Shown piece after piece: positions 2,722 through 52,107 of a stretch of DNA of 64,000 nt (its first letter is position 1; each line of letters begins with the position of its first letter). Position numbers and translations under genes: made by a program. Source of the DNA: Leucoraja erinacea. Taxonomy: Eukaryota. The notes under the pieces are model-generated. The model was not told where the DNA came from, searched no databases, and saw nothing but the letters and a program-made list of their open reading frames with translations. The DNA lies in assembly GCF_028641065.1 (NCBI RefSeq), contig NC_073384.1, positions 10,292,001 to 10,356,000 of the forward strand. The letters run 5' to 3'.

Positions 2722-5700
2722 TCATCTCTTCTCCTTGCGAATGAAACATAAACCAAAGGAATAGTTAGATCTCAAGCCGGGTGTTGAGCAGCCAGGTTGT
2801 TGTCTCTGCGTCAATGTCTGCCAGGCCCTGAGCTCCATTTGGTGGGTGGTAGAGCGGGCACCCAGAGATGACATGGTTGGCTGTCTGTTGTTCTGCTCCG
2901 CATTCACAGGCTGGGCTCTGGCGGAGGGAGCCCCCATCTCCACACGCTGGCATTGAAACGCCCAACTCCAGTACCAAGTCTGTTGAGCTTCACCCATCCA
3001 CGCTCCTCTGGGGAGGTCAGACCCTGGACAGCTTTTATCTGGTGAAGAGATGTAGCTGTGTAATGGAGATGAGGTTGCCTTCCACTCCTGTGACCACTTG
3101 GTGGCTATCCAGTGTGCTTTTGTCTCAGTTGGCTGGATGGATGCTAGGAGTTGTTTTCCATGTGGAGCAAAGGGGTGACGGGACTTCAGTCGGGGTGGCC
3201 TCTGCTCTCTGCTGATAGCCTGATGGAGGAGGTGATCTGGGTCCATGGCATGACGAGATAGTGCCAGAGTTGCTGCTTGCCTTTGGATCCCTGCAGGCGG
3301 AATGCCTGCAAGTATAGGGAGCTGTTCGACTGGAGTAGGTTGAAGGCACCCAGTGATGGTTCACAAGGTGCTGTTCAGGCTCGTGTCTACCAGGCTAGTA
3401 TGTCTACTTCTACTCCATATGGGTGCGTAGTACTCAGCTGGAGCATACACAAGAGCTAAGGCAGAGGTGCGAAGACTTGATAGACTGGCTCCCCAACTTG
3501 TTCCTGCCAGGTGGCGGATGAGGTCACTACGTGCAATGTTGCGGAGACCAGCCAGGATTGATGAAATGTAAGCAATGTCCAGCTTTACGCTGAGGTGGGC
3601 GGGTTTAAAACGCGACTTTCACTAGGCTGTTGCAATCGAAAATGTTCAGCCTAGTAAATCATTAACGAAAATTCACTGAAAGACCCCGTCGCAAAAGGTA
3701 TTATTAGTTTTTATGGCCTTGTATAATAGTTATAGTAGTTTAAAAATCACTCTCTAAACCCGCGACCTCTCGCAGCCCCAGGGTTTTATAAAGCAAACAA
3801 TTAAAGGTATGTACCTTATTTTTACATTAAAAAGGGCTTCTTTATAACCCTTTATACAAAGTTACTATTGCGAGTAGCTAATTTTGGGCTCTTTATATCC
3901 CGCAGTATTTTTCTGGGCATTTGAGGGCACAAATCTAGCGCAATGTGAACATTCTAAACCAGCGCGTTCACAGGAACCCACTAGAAAGCTGATTTAAAAT
4001 GGACTTTAATTTACAGCAATTGAACACTAAATTCCTTCCATTTGGCCTATAAATTAATGTAAATGAGATTTCAAAATCATGTTTTATTGAGAATTATTTA
4101 TTAATATTATTTGGACACAGGCTATTTAAAAATGTTAATCATTTATTAAGAAATGGATAGATGTTTAGATCTAGTAATTGAAGTTTGAAATTAGCTACAC
4201 TTGGGTAACTAACTAATTATATGTTTTAATTTCAGGTCATCCAAGTAAGATTATTTTATATTTGGTTCAGAATGGTTCAATCTACGATAACTGAAAATTG
4301 CATTCAGTTCTCTTAATTTTTAAGAAGGTTATGGGCTTTTGACTGTCCACGATCACAGCTTTTTTGTTATGTCCATAGAAAATCAATAGGGAACAAGATG
4401 CTAATTTCCGAGTATGAAAATGGCCATAACTTTTTAAATACTTGAGATATGAAAGTGAATTAGGTGTCAAATTAAACTTCTTTTTATGCTTTATCTGATG
4501 GGATAAATTACAGACTTGATTTTTTAATTCTCAAAATTGCTAGGTATACTGCCAACTTCCCCAGGTCTTGACTCAAGGAGTTTTCGATTGTATTCCACTC
4601 TTTCTTTTTTTTTTTCCTTTCTTATTTATTTTATTAGAAGTATGTACAGTAATGTGGCACCGAGGTGCCTAATATATATTGGCATGTTACATTTTATGTA
4701 CAACTTCATTTTTATTTATTTTTTAATAATAAAAGAGAGAAAGAGAGAATAGATAATAAAAAATAGAAAAACGTGTGATATATGGTGCGTGAAAAGGAAA
4801 AGGGAGGAAAGAGAGAACGTGAGGGAAAAACAAGGAGAGAGAAAGAGAAAGAGTAGAAAGTAGGAGATTATAGGAGATAGGTATTTATAATCTTGACCAT
4901 CCTTCTCCCAGTCCTGAAACAATCGTCTTCCACTCTCTGTGTCTCATCAGGATGGCTAGATCGTCAGCATACCCATATTTTCCAGCGATGGTCTCTGGGA
5001 GGTCATGGATGTACACGTTGAAAAGCAGCGGAGCCAAGACGGAACCCTGTGGGACACCATTCTTCAGTCTGCTGAGCCTACTCTGCTGTCCATCACTAGT
5101 CGCAAGCACAAAGCTGCGGTTTGATATCAACTTCATGATGTAGCGTACCATGCGCCTGCCTGGCAGTGCCTGAAGTAGCATTGCAGTTAGTCCCCGGTGC
5201 CACACGGTGTCAGATCTATAACAACAGCTCCTGCCGTCTCGTTTGCCCCAAAGCAGTCCTCGATGTCTTGGGCGGGGAGGCTTACCTGGTCCACAGTAGA
5301 TCGACCTTGGCAGAAACCAGTCTGCTCGTGGGGTAGTTGAGGGTCTATGATGGGTTTGATATGCCCGTGGATCCGCCTCTCAAGGAGTTTGTATGGGATA
5401 CAGAGCAGCGAGATGGGCCGGAAGCTTTTAGGATCATCCTTTGGCTTGTTCGGCTTTGGGAGAGCGATGACTGTTGCACGACGCCAGATCTTTGGCATTT
5501 TGCATTTCTCCATGGAGGTTGGCGGGTACTGTCGGATCCAGTTGGTAGCAACTTCTCCAGAATGTAGTAGAAACTCCAGGTGCATGCTGTCAGATCCTGG
5601 CTCCTATCCTGCTTTCAACATCTTGAGTGCTGTGGCCATTTCCTTGGAGGTGAAAGCCATTGTTAGGTCCGTATCCACTCTCTCAATTTTCCATCACTCG

Positions 5701-5845
5701 GCCACCTCTTTGCTCACTTCGCACGAGAAATCATGGTCAGAGTTTGTGAATCGACCATTCTTGACTAGTTGAGATGGGATTGCGTTGGTGGTGACTGGGC
5801 ATTTTCCGTGTTTGGATGTAGCTCTGTCGGTCAGGGGGTTGACTG
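2722..5845 (-). mobile_element. Degenerate Ingi/Vingi-like (I-group) LINE interrupted by two insertions
   Basis: RT motifs WRRATVIALPKPNKPKDDPKSFRPISLLC, NGVPQGSVLAPLLFNVY and YADDLA. C-terminal RLKSRHPF and CECGAEQQTANHVISGCP. 3' end ...CGCAAGGAGAAGA. Frameshifted. Confidence 0.7.
4590..4925 (-). mobile_element. Poly(A)-tailed LINE 3' end (L1/Tx1-like) nested in the Vingi-like element
   Basis: T-rich tail with TTTATT at ~4600-4635 (poly(A) and AATAAA on the minus strand), a purine-rich 3'UTR-like stretch, and a short coding remnant. Confidence 0.4.
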
Positions 5846-7080
5846 TAGAACACACTAAACACATTTTTAACATAAACATCCATCACAGTGACTCCTCCAC
5901 ATTACTCACTGTGATGGAACGCGAAAAAAGTTCAATCTTTTCCCTTTGCTCTCCCACGGTCAGGGGCCTTGAACCAGGGTGATCTGACTCCCTTAGCCGG
6001 CACGTTTTGGCCCTGCACATCGGGGAGATCAGCTCCTGCATCGGGGCGATGTCAGCTCCTCCGTGCTGGACGATCGAACCCCGCGTCGGTGCGGGTCGAG
6101 CCTCTGCGTTCGTTGGAGCTCCTGACGTCCACGGCCTCTCCCGAGACTGCAAGCTCTCGATACAAAGTCCGCAGGCCACAGTTGGAGCGATCCCAGGCAA
6201 GTGATTGACTCCGATGTAAAGTCCTCGCCCCGCGGTGGGGCCCAAGGTCAGTCCGAGGAGGCCTCCAGCTCCATCAATGGTAGGCCGCAGAGTGACCGGA
6301 GAATGCGATCCGGAAAGTAATCGCATCGCCGGCTGGTAAGAAACTGAAAAAAATGTTTCCCCCAACCTCCACCACCTGCCCCCCACATAAAACAAACTGG
6401 AGACCATTTATACAAACTTTTAACATACACTAAACATTAAAAAAAAGATGAAAAAACAGACAGACTATTGGCGGGGCTGCCAATCATGCGGTGCCCCTTC
6501 TGGATGTGATGTTGAATTCAATATCTTCAGGTAACATGATTTCTGTCTGTATCAGTTGGCTTTCCATGATATTGGGTCAGCCTATGTGTGTTTTTGTTTA
6601 TTTATTGTTCTCCGGGAATGCCAAGTCTAACTGGCCAGACGTGTCCTCCTGCTCTGGATTTTACAACTCTGACATCCATTTGTCTATGTGTAGGAAGGAA
6701 CTGCAGATGCTGGTTTAAACAGAAGATAGACACAAAAAGCTGGAGTAACTCAGCTGGTCAGACAGCATCTCAGGAGAAAAGGAGTAGGTGATGTTTCAGG
6801 TCGAGACCCTTCTTCAGACTGAGAGTCAGGGGTACTATGTTCCTTTGTCTATGCTTTCACTTTACTTATTCCCGTCTACTCACTGACCAGATGACCTTAT
6901 TTCCATCTTATCGTCATGGTCACCCCAATTCAACTCTAACATTGATGTTCCTAAATTCCACACCCCCCTCCTCTACCCCTTCATGTTCCCCCCCCCCTTT
7001 TTATCATGTAGTGCAGTGGAGTGGGGTCCCCTTCTCTCCCAATCTCTCCCCTTCTCATTTTGATTGGTTCTCTTTCAGGA

Positions 7081-47317: not shown

Positions 47318-48934
47318 AAGACCACCTCCCATGAACCCAACTCCGCCATCAGGATGGAGCCAGCATTCATGATGAGTTTGTTAATCCTGTTGGCGTCCGT
47401 GGCCTTAGTAAAGCGCGTGGATCGGACGCGGCCTGCAGCATCACGGAGCGGTGGAGCAGCAGTGAGGGACATCGACAACAGCTTCTGGCCAGGCCGACCC
47501 CAGTAACTTCAACCCAGTGCCGTCACCAGGACAACGGGCCTTTATGGCCAAGTTAAGACTCTAACATTGTTAACAACTCTAAACTTGAAGGGTAAAAGAT
47601 GGCACCAGAAATGTGGCGACTCTTATGCACAACCTCAGTGTCATTTCCTAATCTTACACTTATGCACTTAAGTATGATTGTATGATAGTAAGATTTTTAC
47701 TAAATTCTCCACAATGAAAGAATATTACTGTACCTGTGACAATGTTCATTTGACAATAATATAACCTTTGACCATTGAATTTTGAATGGAGTTTTAATAC
47801 ATATCAAATGCTCTTTATCCTGAATCTGGAATATGTATTCAAGAAGGAAGGCAAATATTATGCAATGAAATAACACCAATAAAATAGTAATCATTGCTTT
47901 TTGAATTTATTTTCTAAATATCAATTAAAAATATATAAAATGATCGTACTGCATAAATCCAAAAAATACACAAAAAAATCTTCAAATTTCATGGATTTAT
48001 TTGCTGATGAGAGAGTTCAGCTCAACAGGTATATTTCCCTGGCAATAGTTGACCTTATACAAATTGTAATATTCTCAGAACGTGTAAGGATTTTTTCATT
48101 CTCTAATAAACTTGCAGGAATATAGTTAAGCTTTTTAACCATGTGTTAGAATGCTTATGAATAGTTATCATAGTCACCATTAATGGTGAGGGGGGGAAGA
48201 TTTAATGGGAACCTGAGGGGTAGCTTTTTTACACAAAGGGTGGTGGGTATATGGAACAAGCTGCCGGAGGAGGTAGTTGAGGCCGGACTATCACAACGTT
48301 TGAGAAACAATAAGACAGGTTGCATCGTGGCTTGGTTCGGCAACTTGAGCTCCCAGGAGCGGAAAAGACTACAAAAGGTAGTAAACACTGCCCAGTCCGT
48401 CATCGGCTCTGACCTCCCTGCCATCGAGGGGATCTATCGCAGTCACTGGCAGCATCATCAAGGACCCACACCATCCTGGCCACACACTCATCTCCCCGCT
48501 ACCTTCAGGTAGAAGGTACAGGAGCCTGAAGACTGCAACGCCCAGATTCAGAAATTGCTGCTTCCCCACAGCCATCAGACTGTTAAACTCAACTCAAACA
48601 AAACTCTAAACATTAATAGACTATTATCTGTTTATTTGCACTTTATCTGTTTATTTATTCATGTGTGTATTATTTATATAATGGTGTATGGACACACTGA
48701 TCTGTTCTGTATTCATGCCTACTATATTCTGTTGTGCTGAAGCAAAGCAAGAATTTCATTGTCCTATCTGGGACACATGAATATTGAATCTCTTGACATG
48801 TACATGGATAGGGTAGGATTAGAGGGATATGAGATATAGGCAGGAAGGTGGGACTAGTGTAGATGGGGCATGTTGGTCGGCGTGAATTGTAAGTTGGGTC
48901 GAAGGGCCTGTTTCCGCGCTGTATGACTCTATGA

Positions 48935-49463
48935 CTCCCCGTTGGAATGCAACCTTGTCGTGGCCGGGGAGCTTGTGTGTCTCAGTGACCCCTAGAGCTA
49001 TGCTAGCGGGAGATTCGTCTCCTGTTAGGGTCTCCCATGCTGGACAGGTCGAAGGGTAGAGGCGGGACGAGGAGTGATCCACTGGTCCTTCCAGGTTGGA
49101 GGTTGAGCAGAGGGCTAACAACCCTGTCTCGTAAAACAAATATGTTACGGAAACAGCAACTGAAGGAATCAACACTGTTGGGCGTGATGGTCTTCCAGGG
49201 CTATCGACAGATGCTAGGATGAATGTCAATGGTGAAGAGAACCACACAGCATCCCAAGAATAGCCCTGCACTAGACGCCATAAGGGAAAAGGAAAAGAGG
49301 GAGACCCAAAATCACCTGGCGTCGAACTGTAGAGGAGGAAATTAAAACAATGGACCTGACCTGGGGTAGTGTCTAGAAGCTAGTCTTGAACATGCAGGAG
49401 TGGAGAACCTTCGTTGCTCCCCTACATGCCAGGAGGCATAATAGGCAGTAGGTAAGTAAGTAA
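48935..49463 (+). mobile_element. Internally deleted (bipartite) RTE-clade retroelement
   Basis: RTE-type 5' UTR (CCTTGTCGTGGCCGGGGAGCTTG, GGGCTAACAACCC) joined directly to the RTE ORF end (GKRKRGRPKITWRRTVEEE...EWRTFVAPLHARRH) and a (GTAA)n tail. Confidence 0.7.
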
Positions 49464-50206
49464 TCACTATGATTTACAGCACATAAATAGTCCCTTCGGT
49501 TCATCTTGACCATGTTGGCCAAGTAGGCTTGTCCCATTTGCCTGCATTTGGTCCATAGGCCTTTAAACCTAAGAGATGCTGAAACAAGGAACTGCAGATG
49601 CTGGTTTAAGTTTGAAGCAGAATCCTGACCCGTCTGTGGAATGCTCTGCCTCCGAGACAGGTTCTCTGGATGCTTTCAAGAAAGAGCTAGATAGGACTCT
49701 TAAAAATAGCAGAGTCAGGGGATACGGGGAGAAGGCAGGAACGGGGTACTGATTGGGGATGATCAGCCATCATCATATGGAATGGCGGTGCTGGGTCGAA
49801 GGGTTGAAAGGCCTACTCCTGCACCTATTGTCTATTGAAACGTTACTTATCCACCTTTTCCACAGATGCTGCCTGACCACTTAGTTACTCTAGCTCTTTG
49901 GCCCTTAAACCTTCCCTAGTTGTTAGAATTAGAATTTGAATTAATGTTTAAAATATATCTTCAAAGTTTTTTGAATCATTTTAATGTTCACAGAGACCCA
50001 TAGAATGGTAGTCTTTGGATTAATATTAAATGTCACTGCTTTTTGAAGGTCAACATGAAATAAATCTGGCTTGCAAACATCCTTGCTCTGAGTCCTTTTA
50101 TTCCCTGCAAGCGATTAACGTCACAGCCAATATTGCAACAATATTCTCAAAACAACTTTGATTATCCATGCATAGAACTGGACAAAATTACCACTTGTAT
50201 AAGTAA

Positions 50207-50422
50207 TGCCCCTGTCCCACTTACGAAACCTGAACGGAAACCTCTGGAGACTTTGCGCCCCACCCGGAGGTTCCCGGAGGTTTTTGTCAGTCTCCCTACC
50301 TGCTTCCACTACCTGCAACCTCCGGCAACCACCTGCAACCTCCAGGAACCACGTGGAAACCTTGGGTGGGGCGCAAAGTCTCCAGAGGTTTCCGTTCAGG
50401 TTTCCTAAGTGGGACAGGGGCA
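50207..50422. mobile_element. Near-palindromic MITE (Harbinger-like termini)
   Basis: TIRs of ~60 bp (TGCCCCTGTCCCACTTA...GCGCCCCACCC). Internal ACCTGCAACC repeats. Flanks are TAA and TAT. Confidence 0.75.
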
Positions 50423-51755
50423 TATGTCTATGTTCAAAACACAAAGTGCTGGAGTAACTCAAAGGGTCGGCGACATTGGTGGAGTGTCTGGATCAGTGAT
50501 GTTTCAGGTTGGGACCCTTCTTTAGACCCATAACATCACCTATCCATTCCCCCTACAGTTACTCCAGCACTTTGTGTTTTGCTCAAGGCTCCAGCATCTG
50601 CATTTCCTTGTATCTCCAATAAATCTACCTGGTGATCTCAAATCATGCTGGTAGAATATATATTAGCTGTTTTATTTCCCAATGATTAACCCATTAGCCG
50701 TACATTTCAGCAAACATGCCCAGAATATCTCGGAGACCTGAAACGTCACCGATTTTCTCCAGCGATGCTGCCTCGCCCGCTGAATTACTCCAGCATTTTG
50801 TGTCTGTCTTTGGTGTAAACCAGCATCTGCAGTTCCTTCCTGCACATGGAGGTAAGGAAAGGCTAGAACATTACAGGGCCAGGAACAGATGACCAAGGAT
50901 GGGTGGAGCCCATAATGGCCAATTGTGAGCTTGGGAAGAGGAAGGGATACAAGGATGAGAATTGCCTCAATTGCCACAGAAGGCAGTGGAGGCCAAGTTA
51001 GTGGATATTTTTAAGGCAGAGATGGATATATTCTTGGTTAGTACAGGTGCCAGAGGTTATGGGCAGAAGGCAGGAGAATGGGGTTAGGAGGGAGAGATAG
51101 ATCAGCCATGATTGAATGGCGGAGTAGACTTCATGGGGCGAATGGCCTTGACCACCGGGTGGCGCCAGCCATGGCTGCCTCGCCAACAGTCTGTCTGTTC
51201 TTTCCTTCTTTGTGTTTTAATAGTATGCGTTAAATGTATGTTTTTAATGTTCTTTAGCTTGTTTTATGTGGCGGGTGGGTTTTGGGGAAAACTTTTTCCT
51301 AATCTCTTACCTCGACGGAGATGCGATTGTTTTTCTTACCGTATCTCCGTTCACACTGTGGCCTAACATCGAGGAGTTGGTGGCCTTTGCTGGAGACTGA
51401 TTTTGAGAGCTCAACCGTGGGGAACCAGCGGGACTTTAACATCGTGGAGCCCGCGATCCCTTTGCCAGGGATGGACCTCGGTGCTCCAACTGTGGGTGCT
51501 TCCGGACTCCAACATCATGGAGCCCGCGGTCTCTGGTCAGAGACTGACTTCAAGAACTCCAAGGTACGGGAGTTTCGACCGCCCCGATGCTGGTATTTCG
51601 AGTGCCCCGACGCGGGGGCTTCGACCGCCGGCTGCAGGAGCTTCCATCGCCCCATTCGACTGCCCGAGTAAAGAGGAAGCAAATCGGACTCCATCACAGT
51701 GGGGAATGTGGGGAATCTGCTGTGGTGGATGTTTATGTTAACTTTGATGTAGTTG

Positions 51756-51809
51756 GGGGTGGAAGATTGCAACCTTCACATGGTCCGCCCTGTTTCGACA
51801 AATGCAATC
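51756..51809 (+). ncRNA. HDV-like self-cleaving ribozyme (predicted; this copy possibly decayed)
   Basis: P1 GGGGTGG/CCGCCCT (G1.U wobble), P2 GATTGCA/TGCAATC, P3 ACC/GGT, 7-nt L3 TTCACAT, minimal P4 with a TTCG loop, J4/2 C-A-A-A. Confidence 0.7.
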
Positions 51810-51898
51810 AACCTGGCTTGCACAATCAAGTAAGATCAAACGCAACAAGTTGTCCTACAACTTTAGGCTGTGCACACCATACGCAAGAACAAGAAGAA
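51756..51898 (+). mobile_element. Short non-autonomous retroelement (Vingi-type 3' tail) with 10-bp TSD
   Basis: GATGTAGTTG duplicated at 51746-51755 and 51899-51908. Ends CCATACGCAAGAACAAGAAGAA, similar to the 3' end of the Vingi-like LINE in this window. Confidence 0.75.
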
Positions 51899-52107
51899 GA
51901 TGTAGTTGTGTGTCTTGTTGCTTTTTTTCCCGTATGGCTGTATGGTAATTCGCATATCACTGTACCGTAATTAGTACATTTGACAATAAAAGACCTTTAA
52001 AACATTTAAATTATACTCCTATTCCTTATGACCTTGAGAACAGTGGAGCTAGTAATACGTCTAGGGTGGGTGGTGGGGGGGGGGGGGGGGGGGGGAAGGG
52101 GGGGGGT

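Follow-up and report, generated by a model that had tools for sequence, protein, structure and literature searches.

A 143-bp Vingi-derived retroelement headed by a predicted minimal HDV-like ribozyme

The stretch of DNA analysed here (the window, 64 kb) carries, at positions 51756–51898 of its forward strand, a non-autonomous, internally deleted element of Vingi type, 143 bp in length. A 10-bp direct repeat bounds it (51746–51755 on the left, 51899–51908 on the right), as an earlier sequence-only reading of this DNA had proposed; the insertion and its duplication are fixed because 71 reads (42 starts) that stem from the host repeat's other copies lack precisely 153 bases here, the sum of 143 and 10. 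The first 54 nt (51756–51809) constitute a predicted minimal HDV-like ribozyme with its predicted cut just 5' of G1 (51756), on the evidence of a descriptor, of folding and of RNA 5' ends found at the corresponding position in the family. They are followed by the remainder of the part derived from the 5' end of a LINE family termed here VingiB (51810–51836), of which 51814–51824 form the 5' arm of a predicted end-to-end helix, and by a junction segment (51837–51849) that is unmatched by the 3' end of the parent and, read by eye, looks like a short duplication of local sequence. The segment that stems from the 3' end of VingiB (51850–51884) holds the last codons, the stop codon (51864–51866) and an 18-nt 3' UTR, with the 3' arm of the predicted helix at 51869–51879, and an (AAG)n tail (51885–51898) completes the element. 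No second copy was found inside the 64-kb window. On the reverse strand lie two pieces of a single copy of a sister LINE family, VingiA, namely a 3' fragment (2725–3600) and a reverse-transcriptase fragment (4930–5850). This LINE encodes a reverse transcriptase and a C-terminal cysteine knuckle which, from the clade motifs, we take to be of the Ingi/Vingi type.

Used as a protein query, the endonuclease N-terminus of VingiA gave 81 matches (147/147 candidates scored), from which 30 were returned as loci and 60 longer stretches were fetched; the fetched LINE stretches sort into five Vingi-type families (A to E). One VingiB copy (L160), flanked by a target duplication and carrying Exo_endo_phos and RVT_1 domains according to Pfam, matches the element at nt 3–77 (80%) and nt 95–141 (94%), with 2,777 bp between the two end matches, and has itself an internal deletion and broken frames. 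Additional VingiB copies (from 42 matches at the 5' end and 674 candidates near the 3' end) place the segments derived from the VingiB ends at nt 3–81 and nt 100–129 of the element, which is identical to the VingiB majority 3' end over the 30 nt that comprise the last three codons, the stop codon and the 18-nt UTR; families A, C, D, and E score far below B against the same end. Both ends of the element are common to one autonomous LINE whose coding region has been deleted, and sequence comparison shows that the element is the first ~80 nt of VingiB joined to its last ~30 nt and an AAG tail, an internal deletion of the NARTc/SIDE type. Its head is therefore the parent LINE's own 5' end. This agrees with the earlier suggestion that the element lacks a tRNA head, and ARAGORN found 0 tRNA genes in the window. 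A Pol III SINE headed by a tRNA, 7SL or 5S sequence was considered and set aside on the same grounds, together with the lack of an Rfam match.

The sequence-only reading had likened the 3' tail to the LINE end near 2725 and proposed a Vingi-like LINE as the mobilizing partner. The likeness is real but extends to the terminal ~7 nt and the AAG tail only, and VingiA, which otherwise resembles the element in a 26-nt core of the head, was rejected as the parent, as were families C, D, and E by end comparison. Dependence on a Vingi-type LINE does fit the family data, the partner family being VingiB and not the LINE in the window; the comparison of both ends with full-length Vingi elements that had been recommended finds in VingiB (L160) a match to both. 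Vingi elements are defined, in the available text of a recent review, by a compact single ORF with an APE endonuclease and a reverse transcriptase and by the lack of RNase H (PMC13708176). A compact single ORF encoding an APE endonuclease as well as a reverse transcriptase, in which RNase H was undetected, was found here by Pfam on five proteins from L160 and from the family E copy L122, the C-terminal pieces of these proteins falling in no family, at a length of about 3 kb. The parent LINE would thus be of Vingi type, a name that rests on this architecture and on clade motifs. As the VingiB copies observed are 80–95% alike and broken, the partner may be extinct in this genome.

Across the well-covered nt 10–54, two fixed differences separate the young element from 15/15 parent copies, and both are structure-neutral: a U-A pair of P1 has become U.G, and the other lies at the free second base of J4/2. 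VingiB copies cut short inside the head are many, G1 being retained in 5/15 of those aligned. Older copies of the element retain the parent letters. An older subfamily, represented by two copies ~700 bp apart in L028 and by L123, is 83–85% identical to the window or reference copy, carries parent-type letters and a shorter middle, and is common in the reads of the organism that supplied the RNA data (organism C, below).

In an assembly of 2.19 Gb, from a host that by its repeats resembles a cartilaginous fish, the whole-element search gave 2,997 first-look candidates; 40 were scored, and the 39 besides the window copy are 93–95% identical. One identical 54-nt head has 269 exact occurrences (146 forward, 123 reverse) compared with 0 for the reversed control. 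The family numbers at least hundreds of copies and in all likelihood thousands; a copy number of 1 obtained from incidental matches was set aside. G1 is the common first base in 31/31 copies aligned from the first 30 loci, which had been picked by whole-length likeness. When 30 loci were instead picked on the 3' 69 nt alone (from 40 scored among 1,296 candidates, window copy included), 24 begin at G1, three at nt 2–4 and the others at nt 20, 25, and 77, which bears out the expectation that abundant copies would align at G1. Among 81 distinct copies, 77 begin at nt 1–2, and a 9–16-bp duplication (mode 11–12) ends exactly at −1 in 65 of these 77 full-length copies versus 2/77 controls, so that the coincidence of predicted cut and duplication boundary that had been noted at the window copy holds for the family. 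Dispersal over many contigs, variable target duplications and a simple-repeat tail are shared with elements of the SIDE type. Public sequencing data containing the element sequence comprise 20 runs from nine studies under seven organism codes, none of the runs listed being registered as RNA.

The predicted fold is a nested double pseudoknot of HDV-like form, for which the coordinates given earlier for P1, P2, P3, L3, and the candidate catalytic C all proved correct. P1 (51756–51762 with 51785–51791) has seven pairs in the window copy, including the G1.U wobble and one U.G, and P2 (51765–51771 with 51803–51809) has seven Watson-Crick pairs. P3 (51772–51774 with 51782–51784) has 3 bp and is closed by a 7-nt L3 (51775–51781). 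J1/4 (51792–51793) is predicted to form P1.1 with L3 through one Watson-Crick C-G pair plus U.U, and the segment up to 51798 is a 5-nt remnant in place of P4. A tiny TTCG-capped P4 had been proposed for this remnant; ViennaRNA leaves its 5 nt unpaired and there is no helix. J4/2 (51799–51802) begins with the candidate catalytic C at 51799, and its last A is the first base of the AUG with which the reading frame of the parent LINE begins. A descriptor of this fold, composed after the data had been seen, matches the window at this site alone if it tolerates CpG decay in L3, and nowhere in its strict form; it gave 0 matches in 40/40 Markov-shuffled windows, and 87 matches of seven motif classes in 904 kb of fetched loci, the examples all being this element or Vingi 5' ends. 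Rfam gave no HDV-type match, either in the window (0/15 matches) or on an intact copy (0/3).

Majority heads were used for the comparison among families, single copies of families C and D being missed by the descriptor through decay; they were built from 6, 5, 7, 10, and 8 copies (A to E), with few B copies reaching G1. All six heads (the element and the five families) parse from the first base as P1, P2, P3, a 7-nt L3, and J4/2, with 17/17 pairs formed in the element and families A, C, and D, 16/17 in B, and 15/17 in E. Most positions of P1 and P2 show two to four pair types across the heads, P3 occurs as three sequences, and P1.1 has a C-G pair in five heads and a U-A pair in family C. L3 keeps its first U and its CG, and J4/2 its C, in all six, these having been constraints of the descriptor, and the L3 U...G pair and catalytic C are present in the family majority and in the 269 identical heads. 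Covariation in the helices, proposed as a check, was found as compensatory changes across the five LINE families and not within the short family itself. The predicted ribozyme is 54 nt in the element and family B and 67, 74, 85, and 89 nt in the other families, the difference being P4, which is a real hairpin in A, C, D, and E. On these models all five Vingi-type families found appear to begin, at their 5' end, with an HDV-like fold whose helices differ yet compensate, and the head of the element seems to fit the P4-less, minimal HDV-like subgroup. The first in-frame start codon was seen to lie inside the predicted ribozyme in all five families, linking 5' processing to the start of translation: it is an AUG at the J4/2–P2 junction in A, B, and C, an in-frame ACG at that place in D, and an AUG in the 5' part of the ribozyme in E.

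The window copy differs at nine positions from the majority of the 31 aligned copies. It carries A at both 51780 (in L3) and 51800 (in J4/2), where the family majority has G, and the earlier supposition of CpG decay was right at both positions. Its corollary, that both changes may have inactivated this copy, stands for the first and falls for the second. The A at 51780 removes the U-G pair of L3 and is likely to be crippling, the equivalent change having been reported to slow the antigenomic HDV ribozyme 528-fold (PMC3386971); the A at 51800 should be harmless because families A and D carry A there as their majority state. Two changes in the window copy also break the predicted end helix. This copy is probably a slow, weak or dead ribozyme within a family in which many heads are intact.

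That helix was sought between two 30-nt stretches, one directly following the ribozyme and the other directly preceding the tail, which in the element pair at −23.5 kcal/mol with 11 contiguous pairs (p 0.002). Pairing of the ends is significant in families B (p 0.001) and D (p 0.017) and not clear in A (0.08), C (0.15), or E (0.51), giving support in 3/6 heads only; a 6-bp palindrome present in both arms explains part of it. At nt 59 and 61, fixed changes that separate the young element from its parent each close a mismatch of the helix. As a rule for the whole clade the helix was rejected and is treated as a lead, not a finding; speculatively, pairing of the post-ribozyme stretch with the 3' UTR may hold the ends of the element together.

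RNA 5' ends were examined in four raw-read runs from two studies (X21–X24), with 1–5% of each read; the runs were chosen by species label and come from organism C, in which 0.63–0.75 of the words sampled were present and which could be a different species. Between 3,805 and 4,565 RNA reads per run aligned to copy L009 of the element. The largest rows of loose ends directly before G1 all end in the same sequence, which we take to be the template-switch adaptor, in 1,559 reads of X21 (agreement 0.81), 1,309 of X22 (0.77), 509 of X23 (0.43), and 668 of X24 (0.45). The adaptor abuts G1 in thousands of reads, and RNA of the family therefore starts at G1 in organism C; a table of sharp starts was empty because the adaptor stays on the reads as a loose end. 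Read depth at the 5' end in X21 was 1,811 sense versus 519 antisense (~3.5 times), and runs of A, probably due to oligo-dT priming on the tail, follow the 3' end of the element in RNA reads. Adaptor junctions account, on a rough split, for 53–63% of sense reads in X21/X22, which is no cleavage rate because short molecules are favoured. In a wider control region (48200–52060), a weak comparison, no adaptor was seen among the six loose-end rows listed of 1,832, the element's own row not being among the six.

At both sites in L3 and at the catalytic C, CpG changes were rarer in sense than in antisense reads (ratios 0.50, 0.63, and 0.72), against a median ratio of 0.97 at 12 other CpG sites (rank p 0.024; p 0.18 in the unstranded runs), in a comparison that was post hoc and drawn from non-independent reads. 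Changes at the catalytic-C site were depleted in X21 (0.50), while X22 showed no depletion there (1.06), and a non-core site in P1 (L009 position 1532, ratio 0.43) was more depleted than any core site. At that position, the parent-type A of the P1 3' strand made up 16% of sense versus 38% of antisense reads in X21/X22, other old-subfamily markers being strand-balanced, and the U.G form may be favoured among RNAs that start at G1. An apparent scarcity, in the RNA reads, of variant sites in the ribozyme relative to the 3' part (4/54 vs 16/76, p 0.047) was dismissed, since among the rows listed (nine more exist) it becomes 4/54 vs 10/69 (p 0.26) once an indel-rich stretch is left out.

We consider it likely, with good confidence, that this is a Vingi-derived non-coding element whose 54-nt predicted P4-less ribozyme cuts read-through RNA before G1 and whose product is copied by the protein of the parent. 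Its observed basis is a family of two-part VingiB origin with target duplications and precise DNA 5' ends, together with RNAs of a related organism whose 5' ends lie at G1. A sense copy within a host transcript, transcribed from upstream host sequence, would fold, and the predicted ribozyme would cut before G1, yielding an RNA of ~140 nt with a protected 5'-OH end. The VingiB protein would then bind the 3' UTR and AAG tail, nick DNA and reverse transcribe the RNA in trans (target-primed reverse transcription), as the shared 3' end and tail suggest. The short length would make insertions mostly full-length, and in such a mechanism the ribozyme would therefore be inherited. The steps after the RNA 5' end are modelled on work on L1Tc/NARTc and the R2 SIDEs (PMC3383444; PMC3414825; PMC4035085).

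An element of the same origin could also owe its G1 ends to an internal promoter starting at +1, as does Pr77 of L1Tc, with a P4-less ribozyme that is weak or vestigial; we judge this unlikely, though deserving of some weight. Loss of P4 and a weak P1.1 would suit it, as would a faint B-box-like 5-mer at 51794–51798. In L1Tc/NARTc the same 77 nt that hold the ribozyme are also a promoter (PMC3383444), and since template switching captures capped and uncapped ends alike (PMC6280765), a transcription start at +1 gives the same picture and adaptor capture cannot separate a cap from a 5'-OH. Yet the fold is retained, with compensation, in five families of differing primary sequence, changes at core sites are under-represented in sense RNA, and the majority adaptor junction has no extra G, which according to the same source is found at capped ends in a minority of reads only. 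Nor does the reduced structure preclude activity: a P1.1 with a single Watson-Crick pair is compatible with fast cleavage by HDV-like ribozymes (PMC13635239), and HDV-like ribozymes lacking P4 are a known active subgroup that cleave (PMC10879173). Promoter and ribozyme may both be active.

It is improbable, in our estimate, that the element and its parent are real, and the fold possibly so, while the G1 signal in RNA is a library artefact of strand invasion at a run of G. The element starts with four Gs, and T stands at −1 in 41/77 copies and so resembles the 3' end of the adaptor, a kind of site that is a known source of artefacts (PMC6280765). Invasion would remove Gs, however, and the majority junction retains the three of the adaptor and the four of the element; GGG is found upstream in 1/77 copies, so that such a junction is not easily produced by invasion. 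Nor do the 24 rows listed (535 more exist) include one with adaptor at −1, nt 2 or the G run inside the element. That the HDV-like pairing is a chance match in the head of an ordinary SINE is close to refuted already, and we give it next to no credence: it could appeal to the missing Rfam match and to a descriptor composed after the fact, but 40 shuffled windows gave 0 matches and five independent LINE families show the same topology from their first base. A wider reading goes beyond the ribozyme-headed element preferred here and is advanced tentatively, as possible rather than probable. It holds that the Vingi clade sets its RNA 5' ends by HDV-like ribozymes that contain the start codon, and that one lineage gave rise to a 54-nt P4-less form, active in the cells of vertebrates, from which a 143-nt SINE was seeded. 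Hundreds of working ribozymes would then cut host transcripts, and paired element ends would explain the 5'+3' parasites of ribozyme-bearing LINE clades.

The architecture is already known from trypanosomes and Drosophila rDNA, and the element works like NARTc, RIME, and the SIDEs, whose tested features it shares. NARTc/L1Tc of Trypanosoma cruzi and RIME/ingi are likewise pairs in which a short non-coding element consists of the first ~77 nt of a LINE (with a ribozyme cutting before +1) and its last ~30 nt; NARTc/L1Tc target duplications are 11–12 nt (PMC3383444), and the element has ends of ~80 and ~30 nt and a duplication mode of 11–12. It differs in its animal host, in a Vingi-type parent without detectable RNase H, in an AAG rather than a poly(A) tail, in length (143 vs 263 nt), and in a 54-nt ribozyme without P4, whereas L1TcRz has P4. 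R2 and the R2/R1 SIDEs of Drosophila are also internally deleted and ribozyme-headed, SIDEs being released from co-transcripts (PMC3414825), and self-cleavage has been reported for the ribozymes of both NARTc and the R2 SIDEs (PMC3383444; PMC3414825). SIDEs are, however, site-specific in 28S rDNA and about 0.5 kb long, while copies of the present family are scattered over many contigs in far greater number. Bipartite derivatives of Vingi made of 5' and 3' ends have been described (Vingi-1_EE family; Kojima), RTE, Ingi, Vingi, and R2 being the clades reported to yield them; Vingi is absent from the six ribozyme-bearing clades named in the available text of the same source (PMC5786205). Minimal HDV-like and theta ribozymes share the P4-less nested double pseudoknot and a G1 at the processed end, but are nearly 99% from phage with roles in tRNA processing, whereas here the motif heads an animal retrotransposon; in the portion of that study available, the P4-less minimal ribozymes are described as of unclear function and no match to minimal ribozymes is reported from the eukaryotic genomes screened (PMC10879173).

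A 2026 review mentions HDV-like ribozymes for R2 only in the part of its text available (PMC13708176), and another states that some metazoan LINEs and SINEs use them (PMC6765202). Neither a Vingi ribozyme nor this short family was found in the literature searched, outside which lie Ruminski 2011, the 2011 Vingi paper, Repbase, and patents. Three points appear to be new: HDV-like folds at the 5' ends of 5/5 Vingi-type families, a minimal ribozyme without P4 for which an animal offers a plausible role, and RNA evidence for the predicted processed end. Vingi ribozymes would close the correlation of ribozyme-bearing LINE clades with those that make bipartite elements, and with natural point variants numbering in the hundreds, the activity of individual copies can be tested in RNA data that already exist. 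Vingi-1 has been used as a gene-insertion tool that retains its native 5' UTR (PMC13708176), to which a 143-nt natural template showing the least cis sequence required is relevant. Copies inserted in sense within introns or UTRs could cleave the RNAs of the host.

Several further elements were noted. Family E (L122, L124–L126, L148–L150, L154) is young, with copies ~97% alike, ~3.1 kb in length, a TAAA tail and long open frames, its ORF beginning inside the ribozyme and reading through. The 5' parts of family D are amplified on many contigs as partly tandem units at 1.8–3.4 kb spacing (L121, L123, L127, L133–L136, L140, L143, L145, L179, L180), many with A in place of G1 or without the second half of the ribozyme, and the unit looks like a LINE fragment turned satellite. 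At L105, L108/L129, L158, L161, and L162, the Vingi copy has an inverted piece of its own family attached to its 5' end or close by, in the manner of twin-priming inversions. Within the window, a ~530-bp RTE-like short element with a TAAG tail occupies 48935–49461 on the forward strand and has a second copy in L096/L034, that in L096 lying inside a VingiA head with a 12-bp duplication. Its start has a perfect 7-bp P1 with a C-G first pair, a 7-nt L3 and a G-C P1.1 pair, with the P2 5' strand and P3 the same as in the element at 51756; no P2 3' strand or catalytic junction was seen in it, and this start may be a half or variant HDV-like fold. A 216-bp element with long inverted ends at 50207–50422 is MITE-like, and in Rfam gave a chance MIR820 match below the gathering score.
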